NCBI GenBank assembly: GCA_965116025.1
Contig: OZ220480.1
Location: 1,152,001-1,216,000, forward strand
From: an uncultured candidatus Porisulfidus sp.
GTDB lineage: Bacteria; Pseudomonadota; Gammaproteobacteria; Poriferisulfidales; Poriferisulfidaceae
Length of the DNA: 64,000 nt
Direction of reading: 5' to 3'
In this document: one piece after another, positions 3,120 to 31,614 of the stretch
Numbering within the stretch: position 1 is the stretch's first letter
Layout: every line of letters begins with the position of its first letter
The notes under the pieces: generated by a model
The model's input: the letters and a program-made list of their open reading frames with translations, nothing else
Database searches by the model: none
Told to the model about the DNA's origin: nothing
Translations under genes and position numbers: made by a program

Positions 3120-3316
3120 CGGGAGGACTCTGCCTGAGGTCTTGTGGGCGATTCAGTGTCGCGTCACGGGAGGCATGATGGCGAGAATCACGACGCGCTG
3201 AAGGCGCGGTTCGAGAAGCGCGGGTCAAATTCCAGCCGTTCTCGCCGGAAGCCGTCTTGGCGCCGCGGGGGTTATGGAGGAGGGAAGCGAGGCCGATTCT
3301 TTCGCCCGGTGGGCGT

Positions 3317-4597
3317 TCAGTCCAAAACGGAATGGCGGCGTAAGGCCTCGATATAGCGCGGAATCAGCTGGCCGCCCTCCCGGCTCCGCGCCCGCGCCCG
3401 CTCGCCGATCCGCTGGGCTTCCCGCGGGCGCTCGAGCCATCGGGAAAAAATCTGGCCCAGCTCATCGATGTCACGCGCTTGCCGCAGTCCGTCGCAGGCC
3501 AAGAGCTCCCGAACTTCCGCTTCGAAATGATCCGTGTGGGGCCCGACCGAGCAGGCCTTGCCGAGCATCGCGGGCTCCATCACGTTGTGCCCCCCGCGCG
3601 GAACCAGGGAGCCTCCTACGAACACGAAAGCGGCATGCCGGATCCACCACGGCGCCTCGCCCAGGGTGTTGGCGAGATAGATTTGGTCGCCGTCGCGAGG
3701 CTGCCGGTCGCGGGTGTGCAGTCCAACCCGAAAGCCGAGCTCCTCTAGCCGTTTCAGGATGTCTGGGGCGCGATCTGGATAGCGCGGCATCAGCGCCAGC
3801 AGCTGGCCTCGGGAGTCGAGCGTCTTCCAGAGTCGGGCGATCGCTTCCTCCTCGCCCTTGTGCGTGGAAACGGCCAGGACGTAAGGGCGGTGGATCGGGG
3901 CGCCGTCGGGGAGGTCGTCGACGCTCGCCGCGAGTTTGATATTCCCTAGATTCTCGATTCGCTCGGGTGACGCGCCCAAGGCGGCGAAACGCTTGGCATC
4001 CTCGTCGCCGCGCGCCAAGATGCAGCGCGGCTGGCGGGCCGCTTGGCGTAAAGCGGAGCGGAGCGGAAAAGGAGGAGTTCGCGTTCGCCGCGACAGACGG
4101 GCGTTCACCAGCGCCATGGGGATGTCCAGCCGTCGCGCGGCGCGAAAGAAATTCGGCCACAGCTCGGTCTCCAGGATCAGGATGGCCTCAGGCGCCAGAC
4201 GCTTGAGCCATCGCCGGACGACCGACGGGTGGTCGAGCGGAAAATACACGCAAGGAAGCCCGCGCATTAGCGCGCGCGCCATGCGTCGTCCGGTCGGCGT
4301 CGTGACGCTGACGAGAAGATTCCGTCCGCTTTCCCGCAACGCGCGAGCGAGGGGAAGCGCCGCGCGCACTTCGCCAACCGAGCAGCAATGCAGACAGATT
4401 CTGCCTTTCAGGTCGTTGGGCAGCTTTCGCGCGTAGCGCTGTGCCAGGTACTTCCCGCCGCCGTCGCGCGCGGCGCGCGCGAGGGTGTACAGAAGGGCGG
4501 GGAGGACGGCGGCGAAGGCCAGCGCGCGATAGATGAGAGGGACGGAGCGCCCCGGCTCTGGCTTCAAGGCGCTCAGTCGAGCAGGCCGTTGACCCAC
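3317..4597 (-). CDS. waaA: Kdo transferase (exact start uncertain)
   Basis: HCCSVGEV, ETELWPN, NARLS, GGHNVMEPA motifs. Confidence 0.92.
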   Translation of the reverse strand: MGQRPARLSALKPEPGRSVPLIYRALAFAAVLPALLYTLARAARDGGGKYLAQRYARKLPNDLKGRICLHCCSVGEVRAALPLARALRESGRNLLVSVTTPTGRRMARALMRGLPCVYFPLDHPSVVRRWLKRLAPEAILILETELWPNFFRAARRLDIPMALVNARLSRRTRTPPFPLRSALRQAARQPRCILARGDEDAKRFAALGASPERIENLGNIKLAASVDDLPDGAPIHRPYVLAVSTHKGEEEAIARLWKTLDSRGQLLALMPRYPDRAPDILKRLEELGFRVGLHTRDRQPRDGDQIYLANTLGEAPWWIRHAAFVFVGGSLVPRGGHNVMEPAMLGKACSVGPHTDHFEAEVRELLACDGLRQARDIDELGQIFSRWLERPREAQRIGERARARSREGGQLIPRYIEALRRHSVLD

Positions 4598-5913
4598 TCG
4601 ACGTCTTCCACGCTGAGCTGGCCGGTGGCGTGGCGCAGGCGCAGCGTGTCGATGATGTAGTCGTAGCGGGAGCGAGAGTAGTCCCGCTCGGCGGCGTAGA
4701 GCCGGCTGGTCGCCTGCACCACGTCGACCGTGTCGCGCGTGCCCGCCTCCAGGCCCGCTTGGTGCGCCTCCAGATCCACCCGAGCGGATTCGAGCGCGCG
4801 CTCGAACGCGCTCACCCGCGAGGTCCCGGCCGTGACGTCGCGGTAGGCGGAGCGCGCCACCCTCTCGATTTCCCGCCGCGTGGCCAAAAGCTCAGCCTGG
4901 GCCGCCTCTCGCTCGAAGATGGCTTGGCGGGTGCGGTAATACGTCGTGCCCCCCGCCAGCAGGGGGATCCTCAGTCGAAGCGAGATTCGGTCGGTTTTCT
5001 GCGTGTTCCCTCCCGGGATGAACACGCCGCCGGTGTCCGTGGAGTCCTCCAGAGACGCCATCAGGTCCAGGGTCGGCCAGTGCTTCGCCTCCTCGAAGCG
5101 CACGGAATGCTTGGCGACGCTCACCGCATGTTTCTGAATCAGGTAGTCCAGGTTGTGCAGTAGCGCCGCGTCGGCCCACTCTTGGATGTTGGCGGGTTCC
5201 GGGGCGGTCGGGCGAAGCCGCTCCGACAGGGAGGACAGGAGCTCGTGCGGGTGCGCCGTGAGCGTCGTCATGACCTCCAATTGGTTCTCCAGGTCGTTCT
5301 GGGCCTCAATCTCCCGGGCGACCGCCAGATCGTGGGACGCTTGGGTTTCCTTGACTTCGACGATCGCCGCGAGTCCGACCTCGAAGCGGGCTTTGGCTTG
5401 CTCCAGCTGCAGGGCGATGGCGTCTTTCTCCTTGCGGGAGAACAGCACGGCGTCTTGCGCGGCCAGAACGTCGAAATAAGCTTCCGCCGTCCGCATGATC
5501 AGCCACTGCCGGACCGCGTCGCGTCGCGCCAGCGCTCGGGCCGTGTTGGCCTCGGCGCGGTCCAGCTCGACATACAGGTCGTGGTGGTACAGCGTCTGCG
5601 TCAGGGTCAGCCGCTCGCGCTGGTTCGTATAGCGGTCGCGGCCGCCGCCGCGCGTCGCCGCGTAGACCCTTTGGGTCGATTGCCGAATCTCGGTGAGGTT
5701 GTACTCGAGACCGATGTGCGGCAACCAGTTCGCCCGAGCGATGTTATCTCCTTGTGCGACCGCCTGGAAGCGGGCCTCGGCGATCTGCAGCTCGGCATCG
5801 TTCTGCTGGGCGAGCAGATAGACGTCGAGCAGCTTTTCGGCGGCGTGGGCGGTCCCGGTCAGGACGCACGCGAGGACGAACGCGATGTTTCGTAGAGTTG
5901 GCATTTGGTTCAT
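4573..5913 (-). CDS. tolC: TolC family outer membrane channel
   Basis: Signal peptide, AEAYFDVLAAQD, ARFEVGL, GTRDTVDV, RYDYII; in the pcm-rhodanese-tolC-waaA arrangement. Confidence 0.88.
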   Translation of the reverse strand: MNQMPTLRNIAFVLACVLTGTAHAAEKLLDVYLLAQQNDAELQIAEARFQAVAQGDNIARANWLPHIGLEYNLTEIRQSTQRVYAATRGGGRDRYTNQRERLTLTQTLYHHDLYVELDRAEANTARALARRDAVRQWLIMRTAEAYFDVLAAQDAVLFSRKEKDAIALQLEQAKARFEVGLAAIVEVKETQASHDLAVAREIEAQNDLENQLEVMTTLTAHPHELLSSLSERLRPTAPEPANIQEWADAALLHNLDYLIQKHAVSVAKHSVRFEEAKHWPTLDLMASLEDSTDTGGVFIPGGNTQKTDRISLRLRIPLLAGGTTYYRTRQAIFEREAAQAELLATRREIERVARSAYRDVTAGTSRVSAFERALESARVDLEAHQAGLEAGTRDTVDVVQATSRLYAAERDYSRSRYDYIIDTLRLRHATGQLSVEDVEWVNGLLD

Positions 5914-5918
5914 TGGTA

Positions 5919-6242
5919 TTAGTATGTGGGACAGTTCGGATCGATCTCGCGCGCCCAGGCATCGATGCCTCCGCTCAGGTTCAGCACCCGGGAGAATCGC
6001 ATGCGCCGCTCGAGAAACAGGCAGACCGAGCGGCTGCGGACGCCGTGGTGGCACAGCACCACGGTCTCCCGATCGGGGTCCAGCTCCGGCAATCGGGCCG
6101 TCAGCTCCCTCATGGGGATGCGGTGGCTGCGCGGCAGACTCGCGCGCTCGATTTCCCAGGGCTCGCGGATATCCAGAAGCAACGGTGGCGGGGCGTCCGA
6201 GTCTAAGCGTCGCCGAAGCTCGGCGGGAGAGATCTCTCGCAT
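5919..6242 (-). CDS. Rhodanese-like domain protein
   Basis: LLDIREPWE, CHHGVRS, NLSGGIDAW. Confidence 0.88.
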   Translation of the reverse strand: MREISPAELRRRLDSDAPPPLLLDIREPWEIERASLPRSHRIPMRELTARLPELDPDRETVVLCHHGVRSRSVCLFLERRMRFSRVLNLSGGIDAWAREIDPNCPTY

Positions 6243-6244
6243 GG

Positions 6245-6919
6245 CTAGCCGATGGCGGATGGAGGGGCGATGGGATCCAGATCCAGCTCGAACAGGCGCT
6301 TCTGATACGTTTTGCCGGGCGAATGCTGCCGGACCAGACGGGCCTCCATCACGGGAGGGCGCCCGACCACGACGAACAGGCGCCCCTCGGGCTTCAGCCA
6401 TCGCTCGAAATGGGGGTCATAGTCTGGCATTGACGCGGTGATCGAGACCGCATCATAGCGGATATCCGTCTGGTAGGACCAAGCGTTCATGGCGCGCGTG
6501 GAAACCCAGGGGGATTCCGATTCCCCGACTTGGCCGGGCTCGCCGTTCCACGGGGTCGAGGCGAGCGCCTTTCCCGCGGCTTCCGCGAGCTCCGGATGAA
6601 GCTCGAGGCTGTCGACGCTGGCGCCGAGGTGGCGCATGCAGGCGGCCAGGAATCCCGACCCCGTTCCGACCTCCAGGATCCGCTCTCCTGGGCGTGGAGC
6701 GAGGGATTGCAGCAAGAGCCCCTGGTCGCGGGGCGACATCATGCGTTGCCCGCAAGGCAGGGGGATGGCCATGTCGGCGAACGCCTGGCCGGAATGCTCG
6801 GATGGGACGAACTTCTCCCGGGGAACGCGCAGGAACGCGTCCAGCGCGCGCGCGTCCAGCACGGAGCCTCCGCGCAGTTGCCGTTCCACCATGTTGTGGC
6901 GCGCGGTTTCGATGTTCAT
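6245..6919 (-). CDS. pcm: Protein-L-isoaspartate O-methyltransferase family protein
   Basis: ARHNMVERQLR, VPREKF, LEVGTGSG SAM-binding motif. Confidence 0.82.
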   Translation of the reverse strand: MNIETARHNMVERQLRGGSVLDARALDAFLRVPREKFVPSEHSGQAFADMAIPLPCGQRMMSPRDQGLLLQSLAPRPGERILEVGTGSGFLAACMRHLGASVDSLELHPELAEAAGKALASTPWNGEPGQVGESESPWVSTRAMNAWSYQTDIRYDAVSITASMPDYDPHFERWLKPEGRLFVVVGRPPVMEARLVRQHSPGKTYQKRLFELDLDPIAPPSAIG

Positions 6920-6990
6920 GGGCGAGGGGGATGGTCGAGCGCCTTCGAGGGCGCGTCATTTTACAAAGGTCGCGGAGTCGCCGCCGGCGG

Positions 6991-8892
<1,902 letters not shown>

Positions 8893-9083
8893 TTATACAA
8901 GCCGGAAGCGTTCCACCGGATGAGCGGGGCGCGAACTCTCTCCTGGATCTCTATGGAATCCCCGACGAGGAGGCGGGATTCGTCTCGTAGTCAGAGAGCG
9001 GTCCGCCCCGAGCGATGAGTCCGGGAAAGCCGGGCTCGCCTGTGCTACACTCTCAAACCCGGAATTCTCGCGAGGAAACGACG

Positions 9084-10151
9084 ATGGCGAGCAATCTGAA
9101 GCATATCCGTGGCGACTGGTCTCACGAAGTCCTGCGCGGCACCGCGGCTTCCGAGTATATCAACGGCGAGGGTGGTGACGACTATATCTTCGCCGGCGAC
9201 AGTTTTGACACGATCTGGGGCGGAAGTGGCGACGACTGGCTCTACGGTCAAGGAGGCAACGATGACCTGACGGGCGAATCGGGCGACGATAATCTCGCTG
9301 GCGGCAAAGGCAACGATTGGCTCAATGGTGGCGAAGGCGCCGACAGGTTCGCGTTCCGCCTCGGCGACGGCTTCGACTACATCTACGATCTGCAAGCGGA
9401 CGACACGATCGTGTTCGTCTGGGGCGACGGGGACGCTGGTCCCCTCAAGTTCACGGAACGGGATGGCGAGGCGGTCATCGTCTATGGCGATGGCGGCACC
9501 GACGATGGCTCCCTGAAAACCCTCTTCTATAGCGAGACCGACGAGAACGGGAAACTCTGTTACACCCGCGAGAAGGCGGTTGGTGGCGACGGAGGAGGCA
9601 CCGTCACGATCGGCGGAATGTCGCTGGCCGAATTCAAGGCCCTCGGCATGGGCATCACGGCCCATGGTGGCGATGGCGACAACACGCTGCACGGCACTTT
9701 CGGCCGCGATACGCTCCACGGCGGCAAGGGCGACGACAAGCTAAAGGGCAAAAGCGGCAATGATCGACTGCATGGCGAGGAGGGCGACGATAAATTGATG
9801 GGACATAAAGGAGACGATATGTTGGCCGGTGGTGGTGGCGACGATATCCTCAGGGGTGGCAGAGGCGACGATTTGCTCGCTGGCATGACTGGCGACGACA
9901 TGCTGTGGGGCGGCCGAGGTGCCGACCTGTTCTCGTTCCGCAAGGAGGACGGCGCCGACATCATTCGCGACTTCCAGGATGGCGACAAGATCCGCTTTGT
10001 CGAGGTCGGGCATGGGTACGATGGGCTGACGATCACCAACGACGCCAACGGCAACGCCGTGGTCACCTACGGAGGTGGCCAGGGCGGAACCATCACGTTG
10101 CTGAACGTTGATTCGGAGTCCCTGACCGAATCCGATTTTCTGTTCGCCTGA
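9084..10151 (+). CDS. RTX (hemolysin-type calcium-binding) repeat protein, likely T1SS substrate
   Basis: Many GGxGxDxL nonapeptides in two blocks, C-terminal ..LTESDFLFA, no Sec signal; GAGG RBS before ATG 9084. Confidence 0.88.
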   Translation: MASNLKHIRGDWSHEVLRGTAASEYINGEGGDDYIFAGDSFDTIWGGSGDDWLYGQGGNDDLTGESGDDNLAGGKGNDWLNGGEGADRFAFRLGDGFDYIYDLQADDTIVFVWGDGDAGPLKFTERDGEAVIVYGDGGTDDGSLKTLFYSETDENGKLCYTREKAVGGDGGGTVTIGGMSLAEFKALGMGITAHGGDGDNTLHGTFGRDTLHGGKGDDKLKGKSGNDRLHGEEGDDKLMGHKGDDMLAGGGGDDILRGGRGDDLLAGMTGDDMLWGGRGADLFSFRKEDGADIIRDFQDGDKIRFVEVGHGYDGLTITNDANGNAVVTYGGGQGGTITLLNVDSESLTESDFLFA

Positions 10152-26894: not shown

Positions 26895-27788
26895 CTAGGA
26901 AAGGTCTTTGTCGTTCGCCGTCCGCTCGCGCCATCCTAGCAGGTCTCCGGCCGCGCCGGCCACGGCCACGGCCAAGAGCGCTTCCTGCACGCTCAGCAAC
27001 ACGACGTAAAAAGGGATCAGGGCCGCCGGCCGGTAGCGAATCCGGTCGGCCAGCCGGTGCGCGGCGGCGACTCCCGGGAACAGGAACGCCGCGGTCAGGC
27101 ACAGGGACAGGCCCAGCATGAACGGGGTTGGGAACGCCCAGGACATGGCGAGGACCGCCAAAAACATGGCGCTCGCGGCCCGCCCGTGGTGGAGCGCCCG
27201 GAATTCCCGCGCGAAGAACGGGGTCTCCACCAGCGCGCTCTGCCAGCGGCGGGCGAGCAGAAGCAGCAGGCTCGACAGTAGCGCCAGGCTGGCCATCATC
27301 AGCTCGTTCCCGATCTGGATCAGCAACTCCGTGGGCAAGCCTCGGAAGGGCTCGGGGCGCTCCCCGCGAAGCGTCTCCAGGGTTTCTCTCCAGGCCTGAT
27401 CCAGATCCAGCGGCAACAGGTCCATCGCGTGGGCTCCGGCCCAGGCTCCCAGAAAGCCGCCCAAAATCGCCAGGGACAGGGAATCGGTCCAGCGCAGGAA
27501 GGCGGCGAGGAGCGCCGGGGCGCCGAGAAACAGCAACGGAATCAGGGCCGCCATAGGGTCGCCCAGGTAATACTCGCCCAGGGCCGCGTAAGCCATCCCC
27601 GACGCCGCCAGGATCACGGTGGCGTCCCGCGGGGGGCGCGCCAAGACCATGAACGCCGCGGCGACGCCCGCGAGCAGGATGCCGAACAGCATCGCCGGCA
27701 CATGGATGGCCACCACCTGCAGCGCGATCAGGCCCCCGACGATCGGAAATGGAGGCCCGCGCAGGAACCGCCCGAGCGTGGCGAGCAT
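26895..27788 (-). CDS. Membrane protein (DUF2232/YybS-like)
   Basis: Multiple hydrophobic segments, LARRWQSAL; occupies the usual position between rpsR and rplI. Confidence 0.72.
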   Translation of the reverse strand: MLATLGRFLRGPPFPIVGGLIALQVVAIHVPAMLFGILLAGVAAAFMVLARPPRDATVILAASGMAYAALGEYYLGDPMAALIPLLFLGAPALLAAFLRWTDSLSLAILGGFLGAWAGAHAMDLLPLDLDQAWRETLETLRGERPEPFRGLPTELLIQIGNELMMASLALLSSLLLLLARRWQSALVETPFFAREFRALHHGRAASAMFLAVLAMSWAFPTPFMLGLSLCLTAAFLFPGVAAAHRLADRIRYRPAALIPFYVVLLSVQEALLAVAVAGAAGDLLGWRERTANDKDLS

Positions 27789-28023: not shown

Positions 28024-28602
28024 TTACTCTCGGGTTTCGGAAGGTGGGGGCGCGGGCTTCCCGGCGGCCGGGTCCTCGCTCGCCTTGGTCTCGGGTCCGG
28101 GTTCCGTCGCGCTCTCGTCTGGCGCGGGCTCCTTGGCCGGGGTGGACCGTGGGGACGCTTTCTCCTCGCTCTCTTTCTCGTCGGTGGGCTCTGGCGACGA
28201 CGCTTTCCTCGGAGCTTCGTCCGAGGCGGGCTTTCTCGATTCCTTCGATCCGTCGCGCCACTCTTTATCGGATCCTTCCTCCTCGTCCGACTTGGCGAGC
28301 GGCGAGGGCTCGGTGATGGCGCGGTCCTGGTGGATGATCAGGCTGCGCAGCACGGCGTCGTTGAACCGGAACGCGTGCTGGATCTCCTCCAGCGCCTTCG
28401 AATCGCACTCCACGTTCATCAGGACGTAGTGGGCTTTGTGCAGCTTGTCGATGGAATAGGCCAGCTGACGTCGGCCCCAGTCCTCAAGGCGATGCACCTG
28501 TCCGTCCCTGCTGGTCACCATTTTCATGTACCGCTCGATCATTTGCGGTACTTGGTCGCTTTGGTCCGGATAGACCAGAAACACGATCTCGTAATGTCGC
28601 AT
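28024..28602 (-). CDS. rpsF: 30S ribosomal protein S6 with a long low-complexity tail
   Basis: [28 protein letters not shown]. Confidence 0.97.
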
Positions 28603-28678: not shown

Positions 28679-29380
28679 TCAGAACCCGCTCTCGCGCCCG
28701 GGCGCCGCCGCGACCGGGGCGACGCTCTTGTGGGGCAGGAACAGCCCGCAACCGAGCAGGCGCCCGGGCCCAAGCCCGTGGCACTGCAGATTCAGGGACG
28801 CTTCCGGCTCGAGCCCGTCCAGCATCAGGCTGCGGCAGCGCGCCGTGGCGTCGCCGCTTCCGCGGACGGGGTGGGTCCGTCCGGCCATCATGCGCGGCGC
28901 TTGGACGCCGATGGCTTCCAGGCGCTCGGCGCACAGATCCAGAAACTCCTCCTCTTCCTCAGTCTCGATCGCCACGTACCGGGCGAACGCCGTGCCCTGC
29001 GGCTGCAGCGCGCGCGGCTTGCCATCCTCGATTCGCATCCGGTCCGGTCCGACCCGCAGGGTGGTTCCGGGCAGGGCTCGCGCCTCCTCCAGCCGGTGGC
29101 GCGGAAGCCGCAGCGCCAGCCGGGCGCGCCGCGACAACGGCAGATAGGCGGCCGGGTCGTCCGGGCGGATCCAGCCGTTTCCGGATTCGGCGCCGTGGAC
29201 GGTGTGGATGCCGGCGAGCGGCTCGTCTTCCAGCCAAGGCCAGACCGAAAGCAACGCCGCGCGGAGATCCTGGGCATGGTCGACCGGCAAGGCCGCGCAA
29301 CGCATCCGATAGCGAACGTCCACCACGTCGGACGCGGCGGCCGGCGGCGGAGCGTCTGGTTCCCGCCAGCGCGCGGTCAT
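28679..29380 (-). CDS. cas6: Cas6-like protein (type I-MYXAN/Cmx6-like), orphan
   Basis: N-terminal LPVDH and C-terminal G-rich loop GLGPGRLLGCGLFLPHK; ATGA overlap with the upstream gene. Confidence 0.8.
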   Translation of the reverse strand: MTARWREPDAPPPAAASDVVDVRYRMRCAALPVDHAQDLRAALLSVWPWLEDEPLAGIHTVHGAESGNGWIRPDDPAAYLPLSRRARLALRLPRHRLEEARALPGTTLRVGPDRMRIEDGKPRALQPQGTAFARYVAIETEEEEEFLDLCAERLEAIGVQAPRMMAGRTHPVRGSGDATARCRSLMLDGLEPEASLNLQCHGLGPGRLLGCGLFLPHKSVAPVAAAPGRESGF

Positions 29381-29568
29381 GGGCGGCGGGCCGTGAAGAA
29401 ACTCTCCAGGCGCTCCTCCCAGTCGTCTGGAGTGTCGGGGAACGGAGGGCGGACGTCCAGACTGAGGAAGCGCTCTCCCGCCTCGATGCGGTCCGCGATC
29501 AGCTCCTTCAGGCTCGCGAAGGAATCCAGGTCGGGACGGGCGATCAGGATCTCGCTCAGGGTTAGCAT
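29377..29568 (-). CDS. Small acidic protein (63 aa)
   Basis: MLTLSEIL...FLSLDVRPPFPDTPDDWEERLE; overlaps both neighbours. Confidence 0.78.
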   Translation of the reverse strand: MLTLSEILIARPDLDSFASLKELIADRIEAGERFLSLDVRPPFPDTPDDWEERLESFFTARRP

Positions 29569-30440
29569 GGGAAGGTGGCGCGGTCCGTGTAGCGGGCTCG
29601 GTACAGCAGGCGGGGGCGGTCCGCGGAATCGGTATAGGCGCTCCGGCAATGCAACGCATTATGCGCGATCAGCCCGCACCCCGCCTCCAGACGGAGCGCG
29701 CGCCGAGCTTGCGGCAGGGTCTCCAGCAGTTCCCGGATTCGGTTTCGGGCGGCCTCGGCCTCGGGACGCCAGCGGACGTGGATGGCGCGCTCGGTGTAGC
29801 GCGCATGCAGGCGTCCATCGTCGAGGGAGAAGACCGGACCACGGAATTCGGCGCGGCGCTCCGCGCCGCTCTCGTCGTGGGCGGGCACCGCGAAGGCCCG
29901 CGGGTGCGCCAGGGCTTGGACCATAGCCGGGTCCTCGTCGCGCAGGGCGATGTACAGAAGGCGCGGATCCAGCAACCGGTTGACGCCGCCGTCCAGCGCC
30001 GGGCGGACGCAGTGCAGGATGAAGCTCCGGATCTTGCGCGAGTCCGGCAGGTAGTAGCCGTCGGTGTGCCACCGCAGACGGTTTCGGGTGTACGGGATGA
30101 ACCGCCCGGCCGCGTCCTCCCGCGCCGTCAGCCGGGCCACCCCGTCCGCCTCGGCGCACTGGTGATGGTCGAGATTCGCGAGCCCTAGTCGCTCGCCCAA
30201 GGCCAGAACGTCTTGTGGAGCGAGGGCGCGGTCCGTGGCGTAGTGGACGATACCGCTTGCGCGCAGACGAGAGATCAGGGCGCGGGCTTCCGCGTCGCTT
30301 AGATGGGCGGGGTCGCGCAGCGGAACGGGCGCGAGGTCCGCCACGCTCTCGTCCAGCGTTCGCTCTCGCCACGCGCGATAAGCGTCCGCGCGATCAAGAT
30401 CCCACCAGTCGGGACGCGCGGGAAAGGAGGGGTCAGGCAA
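29562..30440 (-). CDS. TauD/TfdA-family Fe(II)/2-oxoglutarate dioxygenase
   Basis: WHTDGYY (HxD), LHCVRPA..GG, HNALHCRSAY; probable TTG start overlapping the aminotransferase stop. Confidence 0.82.
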   Translation of the reverse strand: MPDPSFPARPDWWDLDRADAYRAWRERTLDESVADLAPVPLRDPAHLSDAEARALISRLRASGIVHYATDRALAPQDVLALGERLGLANLDHHQCAEADGVARLTAREDAAGRFIPYTRNRLRWHTDGYYLPDSRKIRSFILHCVRPALDGGVNRLLDPRLLYIALRDEDPAMVQALAHPRAFAVPAHDESGAERRAEFRGPVFSLDDGRLHARYTERAIHVRWRPEAEAARNRIRELLETLPQARRALRLEAGCGLIAHNALHCRSAYTDSADRPRLLYRARYTDRATFPC

Positions 30441-31614
30441 GAAGGTCGCGCAGGCGCGAGACGCCTTCCTCAAGGGTCGGCATGCCGGTGGCGAACGAGA
30501 CCCGGACGTGGCCGGGCGCGCCGAACGGGAGTCCGGGCACCACGGCGAGACGCGCCCGGTCGAGCAGCAGGGTGGCGAACGCGATGTCCGTGGGGCAGTC
30601 CAGCCGGCGCATGGCCTCGCGGACGTTCGGCAGGCAGTAGAACGCGCCATCGGGCTTGAGGCAGTGGACGCCAGGCAGCTCGTTGAGCGCCGCCACGACG
30701 TAGTCGCGCCGGCGCTCGAAGGCGGTCACCATCTCGGGCACCGAGGACTGGTCTTCCAGCAAGGCGGCGCGGGCGGCGGCCTGGGCGATCGAGCAAGGGT
30801 TGGACGTGCTCTGCGACTGGACCGTGAGCATGGCGTCGATCAGGCTCGCCGGTCCGGCCGCGTAGCCGATCCGCCAGCCGGTCATGGCGTAGGCCTTGGA
30901 GACGCCGTTGACGATCAGGATGCGGTCGGCCAGATCCGGCGCGACCTGCGCCAGATTGTGGAATGGCGCGCCGTCGAACCGGATCAGTTCGTAAATGTCG
31001 TCGGACGCCACGAGCACGCGCGGGTGGGCGCGCAGCGCCTGGGCGATTCCCTCAAGGTCCTCCCGGCGCAGCATGACGCCGCAAGGGTTCGAGGGGCTGT
31101 TGAGAATCAGCAGTTTCGAGCGCGCGGTGACCGCCCGGTCCAGTTGCTCGGCGCTGGGTCGGAAGTTTCGCTCCAGGGTCGTCTCCAGAAACACCGGCTC
31201 GCCGCCCGCCAGCCGCACCATGTCGGGGTACGAGGCCCAGTACGGGGTCGGGATGATCACCTCGTCGCCGGGATCGATCAGCGCCTGCAGGCAGTTGTAC
31301 AGGATCTGCTTCGCGCCCGCGCTGACCAGGATCCGCTGAGGCTCGAAAAGCAATCCGTTGTCGCGCTGGAACTTGTGCGCGATGGCCGCGCGCAAGGCGG
31401 GCGTGCCGCCGACCGCGGTGTAGCGGGTCTGTCCGTCCCGGATCGCCTGGACCGCCGCGGCGCGAACGTTCTCTGGCGTGCCGAAATCCGGTTCCCCGGC
31501 GCTCCAGTCGATGATTTCCTGCCCCGCCTCGCGCAGGCGGCGGGCGGTGGCGGAGACGGCCAGCGTCGCGGAGGGCTCGCAACGTCCGACCCGTTTCGAG
31601 AGGGCGTGTTCCAT
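30433..31614 (-). CDS. Class I/II PLP-dependent (aspartate-type) aminotransferase
   Basis: AGEPDF, NSPSNP, SDDIY, SKAYAMTGWRIGY. Confidence 0.93.
   Translation of the reverse strand: MEHALSKRVGRCEPSATLAVSATARRLREAGQEIIDWSAGEPDFGTPENVRAAAVQAIRDGQTRYTAVGGTPALRAAIAHKFQRDNGLLFEPQRILVSAGAKQILYNCLQALIDPGDEVIIPTPYWASYPDMVRLAGGEPVFLETTLERNFRPSAEQLDRAVTARSKLLILNSPSNPCGVMLRREDLEGIAQALRAHPRVLVASDDIYELIRFDGAPFHNLAQVAPDLADRILIVNGVSKAYAMTGWRIGYAAGPASLIDAMLTVQSQSTSNPCSIAQAAARAALLEDQSSVPEMVTAFERRRDYVVAALNELPGVHCLKPDGAFYCLPNVREAMRRLDCPTDIAFATLLLDRARLAVVPGLPFGAPGHVRVSFATGMPTLEEGVSRLRDLLA

Follow-up and report, generated by a model that had tools for sequence, protein, structure and literature searches.

Cas6 is the enzyme known for making CRISPR RNAs. 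The closest described relatives of the Cas6-like protein analysed here are the Cmx6 proteins of type I-MYXAN/I-B, with the Cas6 of a type I-B CAST Cascade (PDB 8fcj_B) as a solved example, and a Cas6-like domain is also present in Csb2, the Cas5-Cas6 fusion of type I-G. Two further known groups bear on the genes that accompany this protein, namely the TauD/TfdA oxygenases, such as TmpA and gamma-butyrobetaine dioxygenase, and the products of dsrR and dsrS, small accessory genes with regulatory roles that are found together with dsrAB in sulfur-oxidising bacteria. Grimm et al. (2010) reportedly found control by DsrR to be post-transcriptional. A 2024 survey of Dsr evolution describes DsrR as taking part in regulating sulfur oxidation (PMC11406059); the words Cas6, CRISPR, TauD and dioxygenase do not occur in the main text of this survey, and our literature search returned nothing linking Cas6 or Cmx6 to TauD or dsr (supplements, which lay outside the search, might list such genes).

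The locus studied here (Table 1) lies in a 64-kb stretch of the genome of an uncultured Candidatus Porisulfidus species (the window; genome positions 1152001-1216000). The original prediction described it as an orphan Cas6 coupled into a metabolic operon of four overlapping minus-strand genes flanked by core genes (uvrB, rpsF), with no CRISPR array. All four open reading frames and their three junctions were recovered exactly as predicted, with an 8-nt overlap between the aminotransferase and TauD-like genes (TTGCCTGA, 30440-30433), ATGCTAA between the TauD-like and p63 genes (29568-29562) and ATGA between the p63 and Cas6-like genes (29380-29377), all read on the minus strand, and the flanks were found to encode UvrB and the ribosomal proteins S6, S18 and L9. 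We are highly confident that the last of these genes encodes a relative of the Cmx6 Cas6 proteins that belongs to a dsr-linked accessory gene set.

Table 1 Genes of the locus, with positions given within the window.
Feature	Position	Strand	Evidence
Aminotransferase, class I/II, 393 aa	30433-31614	minus	PF00155 E 4.5e-78
TauD-like Fe(II)/2-oxoglutarate oxygenase, 292 aa, TTG start	29562-30440	minus	PF02668 E 6.5e-19
p63, 63-aa acidic protein, translationally coupled on both sides	29377-29568	minus	Conservation in relatives; no Pfam/NCBIfam family
Cas6-like protein of 233 aa; member of a dsr-linked subfamily within the Cmx6 Cas6 proteins	28679-29380	minus	PF09559 E 1e-51; TIGR02807

A Cas6 subfamily independent of CRISPR

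By sequence and by fold, the last gene encodes a true member of the Cas6/Cmx6 (type I-MYXAN/I-B) family. The protein scored 176.1 bits against PF09559 (cut-off 26.7) and 114.1 bits against TIGR02807 (cut-off 98.85), and matched 8fcj_B in the PDB with an E-value of 1.2e-25; for comparison, the CRISPR-linked Cmx6 of another genome (G020) scored 173.7 bits. The RAMP fold implied by the original assignment was borne out by an AlphaFold2 model (pLDDT 88.6) with two ferredoxin-like domains, for which the top Foldseek matches were the type I-B Cas6 structures 8fcu_B and 8fcj_B (TM 0.74-0.81), followed by P. furiosus Cas6 and Cse3. Both predicted sequence hallmarks are present, LPVDH at residues 31-35 and the Gly-rich loop GLGPGRLLGCGLF at residues 202-214, in which G202...G212 are invariant. 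H35, the last residue of LPVDH, is invariant in 71 sequences and is placed by the model between strand 1 and helix 1, the site where Cas6e carries its catalytic histidine; it aligns with a histidine in the canonical Cmx6 of G020, and the equivalent residue in 8fcj_B is asparagine. In addition to the double ferredoxin-like fold, D34, H35, H59, R87, R91, R134 and the Gly-rich loop (GLGxxRxxGCGxF) are common to the Cas6-like protein and the CRISPR-linked Cmx6 of G020.

Within this family the protein falls into a separate subfamily that is independent of CRISPR. A GxGWxRP loop was present in 120/120 relatives of the Cas6-like protein and in 0/150 canonical Cmx6 representatives, and an inserted loop, W-x-R-P-x-D-P after GAESGNG, is invariant but modelled with low confidence. 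In a quick maximum likelihood tree, all 40 dsr-linked sequences were placed to the same side of a branch supported at SH-aLRT 100, and a C-terminal PHK extension, which distinguishes the subfamily further from Cmx6, was found in 88 of the 120 relatives. The subfamily also differs in having a lower isoelectric point (median pI 6.2, n=120, versus 9.85 for canonical Cmx6, n=128), a difference that counts against a role with RNA, with the two copies of G020 lying closer together (9.67 for the dsr-linked copy and 10.05 for the canonical Cmx6). Unlike Cmx6, its members have no cas neighbours and no dependence on an array, and are found instead beside a fixed set of genes encoding the TauD-like oxygenase, p63 and a DsrC paralogue.

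The predicted absence of a CRISPR array holds for the window, in which a k-mer scan of the whole genome detected no array-like candidate, but not for the genome, whose one array (~39-40 repeats) and accompanying type I-G cas genes occupy genome positions 340-352 kb, ~840 kb from the Cas6-like gene. The genome-wide searches with cas profiles, which covered PF09559 and Cas1, gave one match each. The idea that the gene is a displaced cas6 whose product acts in trans on this distant array would be compatible with the hairpin-forming 36-nt repeat and with a score above the NCBIfam cut-off for Cmx6, but we consider this explanation extremely improbable. The array is adjoined by its own Csb2 (genome 346-348 kb), which shares a Cas6-like domain with the protein studied here but belongs to a different family (TIGR02165) and has an unrelated gene context, and, in the type I-G system studied in Thioalkalivibrio sulfidiphilus (PMC9638904), cleavage of the repeat is carried out by Csb2 alone. 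Across the order, the Cas6-like gene was found in 40/41 genomes and Cas1 in 18/41; 22 of the 23 related genomes without a Cas1 match still carry the Cas6-like gene, and in one family with genomes of ~1 Mb the counts are 12/12 for the Cas6-like gene and 0/12 for Cas1. Furthermore, G020 encodes a full I-MYXAN locus, including a Cmx6 and an array of its own, in addition to a separate dsr-linked copy, and the conserved neighbours of the Cas6-like gene are unrelated to cas genes. As the original prediction had proposed, the Cas6-like protein does not work for CRISPR.

A conserved module divergent from dsrAB

The conserved unit consists of the TauD-like, p63 and Cas6-like genes in this order, usually followed by the gene of a cysteine-less DsrC paralogue and that of a 67-aa protein, and is normally divergent from dsrAB. 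Around the Cas6-like gene, the TauD-like gene was present in 27/30 loci and p63 in 29/30, while around p63 (80 loci listed of ~580) the TauD-like gene was present in 75/80 and the Cas6-like gene in 73/80. A divergent dsrA was found in 39 of the 40 loci with enough flanking sequence, the DsrC paralogue in 38/53 loci and the 67-aa gene in 50/53. The statement in the original prediction that similar trios occur in sulfur-oxidising proteobacteria proved correct, with examples in Thioalkalivibrio, Thiohalophilus and Thiohalobacter, and the survey of homologous neighbourhoods that it called for recovered the TauD-like gene, p63 and the DsrC paralogue as neighbours and no cas genes beside them. The recurrent trio was thus anticipated, but the dsrAB cluster with its DsrC paralogue was absent from that first reading. 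The module resembles dsrR and dsrS in comprising small accessory genes that accompany dsrAB, and differs from them in encoding different proteins in a divergent transcription unit.

In the genome analysed here the arrangement is altered. The genes dsrABEFHCMK lie at 1099881-1106010, ~75 kb from the trio in the window, and the genes for the DsrC paralogue and the 67-aa protein are likewise located elsewhere in the genome, away from the trio. The first three genes of the module are relocated behind the aminotransferase gene in this genus, in which 15/16 loci have this linkage; among the 80 listed p63 loci (of ~580) it was observed in 14, all of them from Candidatus Porisulfidus or near relatives. 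The aminotransferase, for which aspartate transaminase is the nearest NCBIfam model with a score under the cut-off, is a neighbour in this genus only and lies outside the conserved module, so that the 'metabolic operon' of the original prediction is a rearrangement confined to the genus.

After the Cas6-like gene, most lineages encode a member of the DsrC family (TIGR03342, 99 bits) in which both cysteines are missing (RspA-type) and whose invariant C-terminal arm ends in GLPESRRKGGY. This paralogue is a true member of the DsrC/TusE/RspA group, in contrast to p63, which has no profile similarity to it. Relatives of p63 nevertheless carry the public NCBI name 'sulfur relay protein DsrC', which appears to be a misnomer on sequence grounds, as hhalign of p63 against DsrC and RspA-type proteins gave a probability of 0.4% over 12 columns and no Pfam or NCBIfam match was obtained.

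The distribution of p63 is nested within that of dsrA. Among 400 genomes of the class, a set that includes related genomes and whose counts are therefore not independent of each other, 105 had both p63 and dsrA, 2 had p63 only, 22 had dsrA only and 271 had neither; p63 was accordingly accompanied by dsrA in 105/107 genomes and present in 2/273 genomes without dsrA, and in one of the two p63-only genomes the contig ends beside the TauD-like gene. The 22 of 127 dsrA genomes that lack p63 indicate that Dsr does not strictly need the module. With phototrophy considered as a reason for these absences, PufLM was found in 1 of these 22 genomes and in 0/107 genomes with p63, in a sample with few phototrophs. 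The module was contiguous in 5/5 checked genomes of 0.9-1.2 Mb, with the DsrC paralogue after the Cas6-like gene in all five. In two genomes of another class, a dsrA-linked TauD-like gene and p63 occur with no Cas6-like gene within 1.5 kb, indicating that the oxygenase pair can exist without the Cas6-like protein.

Despite its small size, p63 is a real gene, given its conservation in 29/30 of the loci taken around the Cas6-like gene and its 1687 clusters of relatives. It is acidic (pI 4.4), with 15 invariant positions in 18 sequences, and was modelled by AlphaFold2 as three helices (pLDDT 88.3). A Foldseek search of the PDB with this model returned 0 matches, an HMM search of the PDB gave nothing below an E-value of 0.029, and matches in the ESM Atlas were limited to the proteins' own clusters. 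A search for fused forms gave four longer relatives, one of which is a TauD-p63 fusion represented by a single sequence on a 1.5-kb contig.

The TauD-like protein scored 69.3 bits against PF02668 (cut-off 27) and has the HxD...H iron triad (H125, D127, H264) together with R277 and R281, all invariant in 17 sequences. The proteins of solved structure closest to it are TmpA (6npb, E 8.5e-7, with a match confined to the catalytic half), gamma-butyrobetaine dioxygenase, DfmD and FrbJ. It shares with these TauD/TfdA oxygenases the PF02668 domain, the triad and the conserved arginine, but differs in its length of only 292 aa, in a match that is weak and limited to the catalytic part, and in its fixed partnership with a 63-aa protein and dsrA. 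All NCBIfam equivalogs scored far under their cut-offs, the best being TmpA with 31.4 bits (cut-off 400), and neither NCBIfam nor PDB matches assigned the protein to a characterised enzyme (taurine, TmpA, BBOX or TMLH).

A search of five loci with Rfam recovered only tRNA and two sub-threshold microRNA look-alikes, and no relevant RNA target. A conserved 17-nt element, CCTACCCATGGGGTG (TATCYC-N4-GRGRTA), occurs between dsrA and the TauD-like gene once per genome in 5/5 genomes. Many U-G pairs suggested a plus-strand RNA hairpin, but this reading was rejected, with covariation not above that of shuffled alignments (49/500 reach it). The core of the element also recurs in either orientation in the gap that precedes the 67-aa gene, and in this respect it behaves as a DNA operator would. 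The element was not found in the genome analysed here, and a degenerate copy discerned by eye upstream of dsrA was ruled out by its wrong spacing.

Possible roles of the module

We tentatively favour an explanation, which may hold, in which the Cas6-like protein, the oxygenase and p63, whose translation is coupled, would act together as a Dsr-dedicated device. The Cas6-like protein would keep the ancestral hairpin-binding, and perhaps hairpin-cutting, site and act on a sulfur-oxidation transcript, and the oxygenase with its p63 partner may tie this action to the supply of oxygen, 2-oxoglutarate or iron. The residues and Gly-rich loop in common with the Cmx6 of G020, together with the placement of H35, speak for such an RNA site. 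That the trio works through RNA at all is possible rather than probable.

A complex directed at protein rather than RNA appears somewhat unlikely. The Cas6-like protein would no longer bind RNA and would serve with p63 as a scaffold or recognition subunit that presents a Dsr protein to the TauD-like hydroxylase, with the invariant C-terminal arm of the cysteine-less DsrC paralogue as a candidate substrate, or would aid the maturation of DsrAB/DsrC. Overlapping stop and start codons at each junction suggest that the proteins are made in matched amounts, the subfamily has largely lost the positive charge seen in canonical Cmx6, and in the majority of loci and all five of the ~1 Mb genomes the Cas6-like gene is followed by that of the DsrC paralogue, whose C-terminal arm is always the same. 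Retention of the module in such streamlined genomes, in which few dispensable genes persist, is no less compatible with a role in maturation or an enzymatic function than with regulation, and the occurrence of the TauD-like gene and p63 beside dsrA without Cas6 in another class points in the same direction. However, D34, H35, H59, several arginines and the Gly-rich loop are still invariant, and since these residues are common to the RNA-cutting Cmx6 their conservation would be unexpected in a protein that had given up its RNA site. The proteins are joined by no robust fusion, the one TauD-p63 fusion being a single sequence, and the enzymes of solved structure closest to the oxygenase have small-molecule substrates. 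This last observation, together with the intact Fe/2OG triad, would suit a role in small-molecule metabolism, as implied by the heading of the original prediction, in which the TauD-like protein (with the aminotransferase in this genus) hydroxylates a small substrate, for instance an organosulfonate or quaternary amine, and the Cas6-like protein is an accessory or passenger. TmpA, gamma-butyrobetaine dioxygenase, DfmD and FrbJ are all small-molecule enzymes, and the aminotransferase stop codon overlaps the TauD-like start codon in this genus. We nevertheless regard such a role as improbable, because the aminotransferase is linked in just 14 of the 80 listed p63 loci, the oxygenase is tied to dsrA (39/40 loci, 105/107 genomes) and not to transport or catabolic genes, and the Cas6-like protein is too constant (73/80 listed loci) and too conserved for a passenger.

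Returning to the Cas6-like protein as part of a Dsr-dedicated device acting on RNA, its most specific form is speculative and rather doubtful: Cas6 would have been exapted once in sulfur-oxidising Gammaproteobacteria as a housekeeping RNA factor, its cutting or clamping of a hairpin gated by the Fe/2OG oxygenase and p63 so as to tune Dsr oxidation to oxygen. If true, a Cas protein would here have a task that is inherited vertically, unrelated to defence and kept even in symbiont-sized genomes.

For the annotation of these genomes, 'type I-MYXAN Cas6' does not signal the presence of CRISPR, and the name 'DsrC' is wrong for the 63-aa protein. For sulfur microbiology, up to five uncharacterised genes are added to the oxidative dsr gene set. 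For CRISPR biology, the subfamily is a clean and widespread case of a Cas protein with another job, and the coexistence of canonical and recruited copies in one genome provides a built-in comparison. A subfamily of Cas proteins has left defence and become a near-constant companion of a main pathway of sulfur oxidation.

The four-gene locus and its Cas6 subfamily

The source genome is a single contig of 2.02 Mb (62.7% G+C, 99.4% complete), and the closest named relatives are 'Candidatus Porisulfidus' MAGs, which are sponge-associated sulfur oxidisers. The four minus-strand ORFs of the original prediction were all found as described, with the junctions TTGCCTGA (30440-30433), ATGCTAA (29568-29562) and ATGA (29380-29377) read on the minus strand, and with UvrB on one side of the locus and S6, S18, L9 and DnaB on the other. 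Within the latter flank, the genes for S18 and L9 are separated by a hydrophobic ORF of 297 aa that matches no Pfam family (window 26895-27788, minus strand), and the S6 protein (window 28024-28602, minus strand; 192 aa) has an acidic and proline-rich C-terminal tail.

Coordinates of the features discussed. L numbers denote excised loci, C1 a contig of the genome named (the window's own unless stated) and G020 a relative in the same order.
Feature	Location	Strand	Match or remark
Aminotransferase	window 30433-31614	minus	PF00155, E 4.5e-78
TauD-like Fe/2OG oxygenase	window 29562-30440	minus	PF02668, E 6.5e-19
p63 (63-aa ORF)	window 29377-29568	minus	no family match
Cas6-like	window 28679-29380	minus	PF09559, E 1e-51; TIGR02807 score exceeds cut-off
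dsr operon, own genome	1099881-1106010
DsrC paralogue, own genome	C1:269843-270178
DsrC paralogue, example	L051:8938-9279	plus
67-aa gene, own genome	1020691-1020888
67-aa gene, example	L057:9430-9633
Two-box element	dsrA/TauD-like intergenic regions of L048-L113, e.g. L097:6742-6789; also L024, L032, L033
TauD-like/p63 pair of another class	L124:535-1692 and L123		dsrA divergent in one of the two
CRISPR array, own genome	342279-345139		~39-40 copies of 36-nt repeat
Type I-G genes around array, own genome	340-352 kb		Cas4/Cas1, Csb1, Csb2, Cas3g, Cas3-extension protein
Type I-G locus, sub-coordinates	L002:17955-19706; L003:279-3139 and 3212-9918		complete locus
1784-aa protein, own genome	L002:12311-17665 (genome ~334-340 kb)	minus	DUF4011, AAA_11/AAA_12 helicase, MTES_1575 nuclease
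Type I-MYXAN locus of G020	L120 (G020:C1:1384000-1403000)		canonical Cmx6; array of 36-nt repeat spans 5.4 kb

The Cas6 identity was borne out by an AlphaFold2 model (pLDDT 88.6; 71-sequence alignment as input), whose best Foldseek match is to Cas6 from a type I-B CAST Cascade (8fcu_B and 8fcj_B, TM 0.74-0.81), with further Cas6 and Cse3 structures ranking next; 8fcj_B was also recovered by sequence with the Cas6-like profile (E 1.2e-25). Alignment with the CRISPR-linked Cmx6 of G020 revealed D34, H35, H59, R87, R91, R134 and the G-rich loop in common, whereas the window's kind has an additional loop W-x-R-P-x-D-P after GAESGNG, invariant in sequence and modelled with low confidence, and a C-terminal PHK extension. 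The motif GxGWxRP is present in 120/120 listed relatives of the window's protein (hereafter the dsr-linked subfamily) versus 0/150 of the best representatives from a search with the canonical, CRISPR-linked Cmx6 as query (1328 representatives at E <= 0.001). In a quick maximum-likelihood tree, arbitrarily rooted, that combined 40 dsr-linked rows (each third one among the 120) with 90 canonical rows (the first 90 of 128 at 190-240 aa), the dsr-linked rows all lie to one side of a branch supported at SH-aLRT 100. On the whole, the dsr-linked subfamily is far less basic than canonical Cmx6 (median pI 6.2 versus 9.85), with a range that reaches 9.5 and with values of 9.67 (dsr-linked) and 10.05 (canonical) for the copies in G020.

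The predicted absence of a CRISPR array held within the window, where a genome-wide scan gave no array-like candidate, but not for the genome as a whole, which has an array in a type I-G locus. One repeat-spacer unit of this array is exactly duplicated (L003 2846-2919 and 2920-2993), and the gene for the 1784-aa protein just upstream of cas4/cas1 looks like a defence gene. A PF09559 search of the genome returned one match, to the Cas6-like gene of the window, which lies 840 kb away from the array. Of 41 genomes of the order, 40 encode the Cas6-like gene and 18 encode Cas1, which supports the core idea of a domesticated, CRISPR-independent Cas6; in family f2, whose genomes measure 0.9-1.2 Mb, it is 12/12 versus 0/12. 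The relative G020 encodes a full type I-MYXAN locus (cmx6, cas3, cmx1, devR, devS, cas4/cas1 and a long array) and also, 1.1 Mb from it, a Cas6 copy of the window's kind.

A conserved unit and its association with dsr genes

Among 30 loci of the order around the Cas6-like gene, 29 contain p63 and 27 the TauD-like gene, with the same order and direction, and the three genomes without an adjacent TauD-like gene encode one elsewhere. The only locus of the 30 without p63 is L024, from a relative with a 0.9 Mb genome (G018, 86% complete), in which 45 nt separate the TauD-like gene from the Cas6-like gene. A scan with the p63 alignment, using one genome per species, gave 580 relatives, and the neighbourhoods of the best 80 contained the TauD-like gene in 75 cases and the Cas6-like gene in 73, with several of the misses at the ends of contigs. 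The aminotransferase is linked in 15/16 loci within the genus and in 14 of these 80 best p63 loci, all from this genus or next to it, so that the 'metabolic operon' originally proposed to include it needs correction.

The TauD-like protein retains H125, D127 and H264 together with conserved arginines; among solved structures it comes closest to TmpA and gamma-butyrobetaine dioxygenase, in a weak match to the catalytic half only, and none of the NCBIfam equivalogs came near its cut-off. In 44 sequences of the acidic p63 (pI 4.4), 12 positions are invariant, among them D38, P41, F43, D45-T46-P47 and W50, and the confident three-helix model of the protein (pLDDT 88.3) had no match in the PDB. NCBI and UniRef label its relatives (proteins P0279, P0300, P0308 and others) 'sulfur relay protein DsrC', a name that appears to be wrong, as comparing its profile against DsrC and RspA-type proteins indicated no relation (probability 0.4%).

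Outside the genus, flanking-ORF clustering and family searches place the unit divergent from dsrABEFHCMK, with dsrA divergent in 39/40 loci whose upstream flank reaches 3.5 kb or more. The unit is followed by a DsrC-family gene in which both cysteines are absent and whose C-terminal end is a near-invariant arm, ...GLPESRRKGGY (the true DsrC of the dsr operon ends in ...CKYAGLPKPTGCV), and next by a conserved 67-aa gene without a family match; where the downstream flank was sufficient, these occur in 38/53 and 50/53 loci, respectively. The Cas6-like, paralogue and 67-aa genes are contiguous beside the dsr operon in 5/5 checked genomes of 0.9-1.2 Mb, and the set is scattered in the window's genome.

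Across the class, an even draw of 400 genomes (dsrA defined by TIGR02064, E <= 1e-30) gave p63 in 107 and dsrA in 127, with both in 105, p63 only in 2, dsrA only in 22 and neither in 271; no test statistic is attached to these counts because related genomes are not independent. One p63-only genome has a contig end at the TauD-like gene, where dsrA is expected, and the other is 81% complete. A phylum sample yielded two genomes of another class with p63 adjoining a TauD-like gene, in one case (L124) with dsrA divergent and a sulfide:quinone-reductase-like gene downstream, and no Cas6-like gene was detected within 1.5 kb of the pair in either. This suggests, as a lead from two genomes only, that the oxygenase-p63 pair is an older dsr-linked core to which the Cas6-like gene was added later.

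A two-box element near dsrA

The intergenic region (~440 nt) of 39/51 loci with divergent dsrA contains two boxes, the first being CCTACCCATGGGGTG and the second, exactly 17 nt on, the palindrome TATCYC-N4-GRGRTA. This composite element occurs in one copy per genome in 5/5 genomes, save one chance-like additional match, and related copies lie upstream of the TauD-like gene in 5/11 of the loci from families f2, f3 and f4 that hold this gene; no copy was detected in the window's own genome. In the gap preceding the 67-aa gene, where the core CCC-N3-5-GGG(G)ATA occurs on either strand, it is enriched (28 matches in 4.7 kb versus ~0.08 per kb elsewhere). The stem has many U-G cells, yet its covariation does not exceed that of shuffles. 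Given this null result and the either-strand core, a DNA operator is a better fit than a Cas6 hairpin, perhaps one for the DsrC paralogue, and the element probably serves as operator for the promoters that drive dsr and the module in opposite directions.

Possible roles of the module

Our tentative first choice is that the Cas6-like protein would still bind a specific RNA stem-loop, and perhaps cut it, since the residues common with the RNA-cutting Cmx6 remain invariant. They include a histidine at the position that the catalytic histidine occupies in Cas6e. Second-best, and possible rather than probable, is a protein-directed complex in which the Cas6-like protein would be a scaffold and the oxygenase would modify a protein of the Dsr pathway, for which the DsrC paralogue, with its invariant arm, offers an obvious candidate substrate; the subfamily's reduced positive charge and the retention of the module in very small genomes lean towards such a complex. 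A small-molecule role together with the aminotransferase appears unlikely, fitting poorly because that link is limited to one genus. Trans-processing of CRISPR RNA by the Cas6-like protein is highly improbable, being contradicted by the distribution of the gene relative to Cas1 and by the presence in the genome of Csb2, which in the type I-G system of Thioalkalivibrio sulfidiphilus cuts the repeat alone and remains on the hairpin, according to passages of a published study (PMC9638904).

The individual proteins are already annotated in public databases (Cas6/Cmx6, TauD family, 'DsrC'). Full-text searches of openly available main texts found no account of a Cas6/Cmx6 gene linked to TauD or dsr, and a survey of how Dsr evolved, published in 2024 (PMC11406059), does not use the words Cas6, CRISPR, TauD or dioxygenase in its main text. 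The novelty appears to lie in the module, in its dsr link and in the split of the Cas6 family, for which the two Cas6 copies in G020 are a natural pair for comparison. The observation behind the original prediction is confirmed. This Cas6 belongs to a distinct subfamily that is independent of CRISPR, coupled to an Fe/2OG oxygenase and p63, inherited with oxidative dsr genes and usually encoded beside them.
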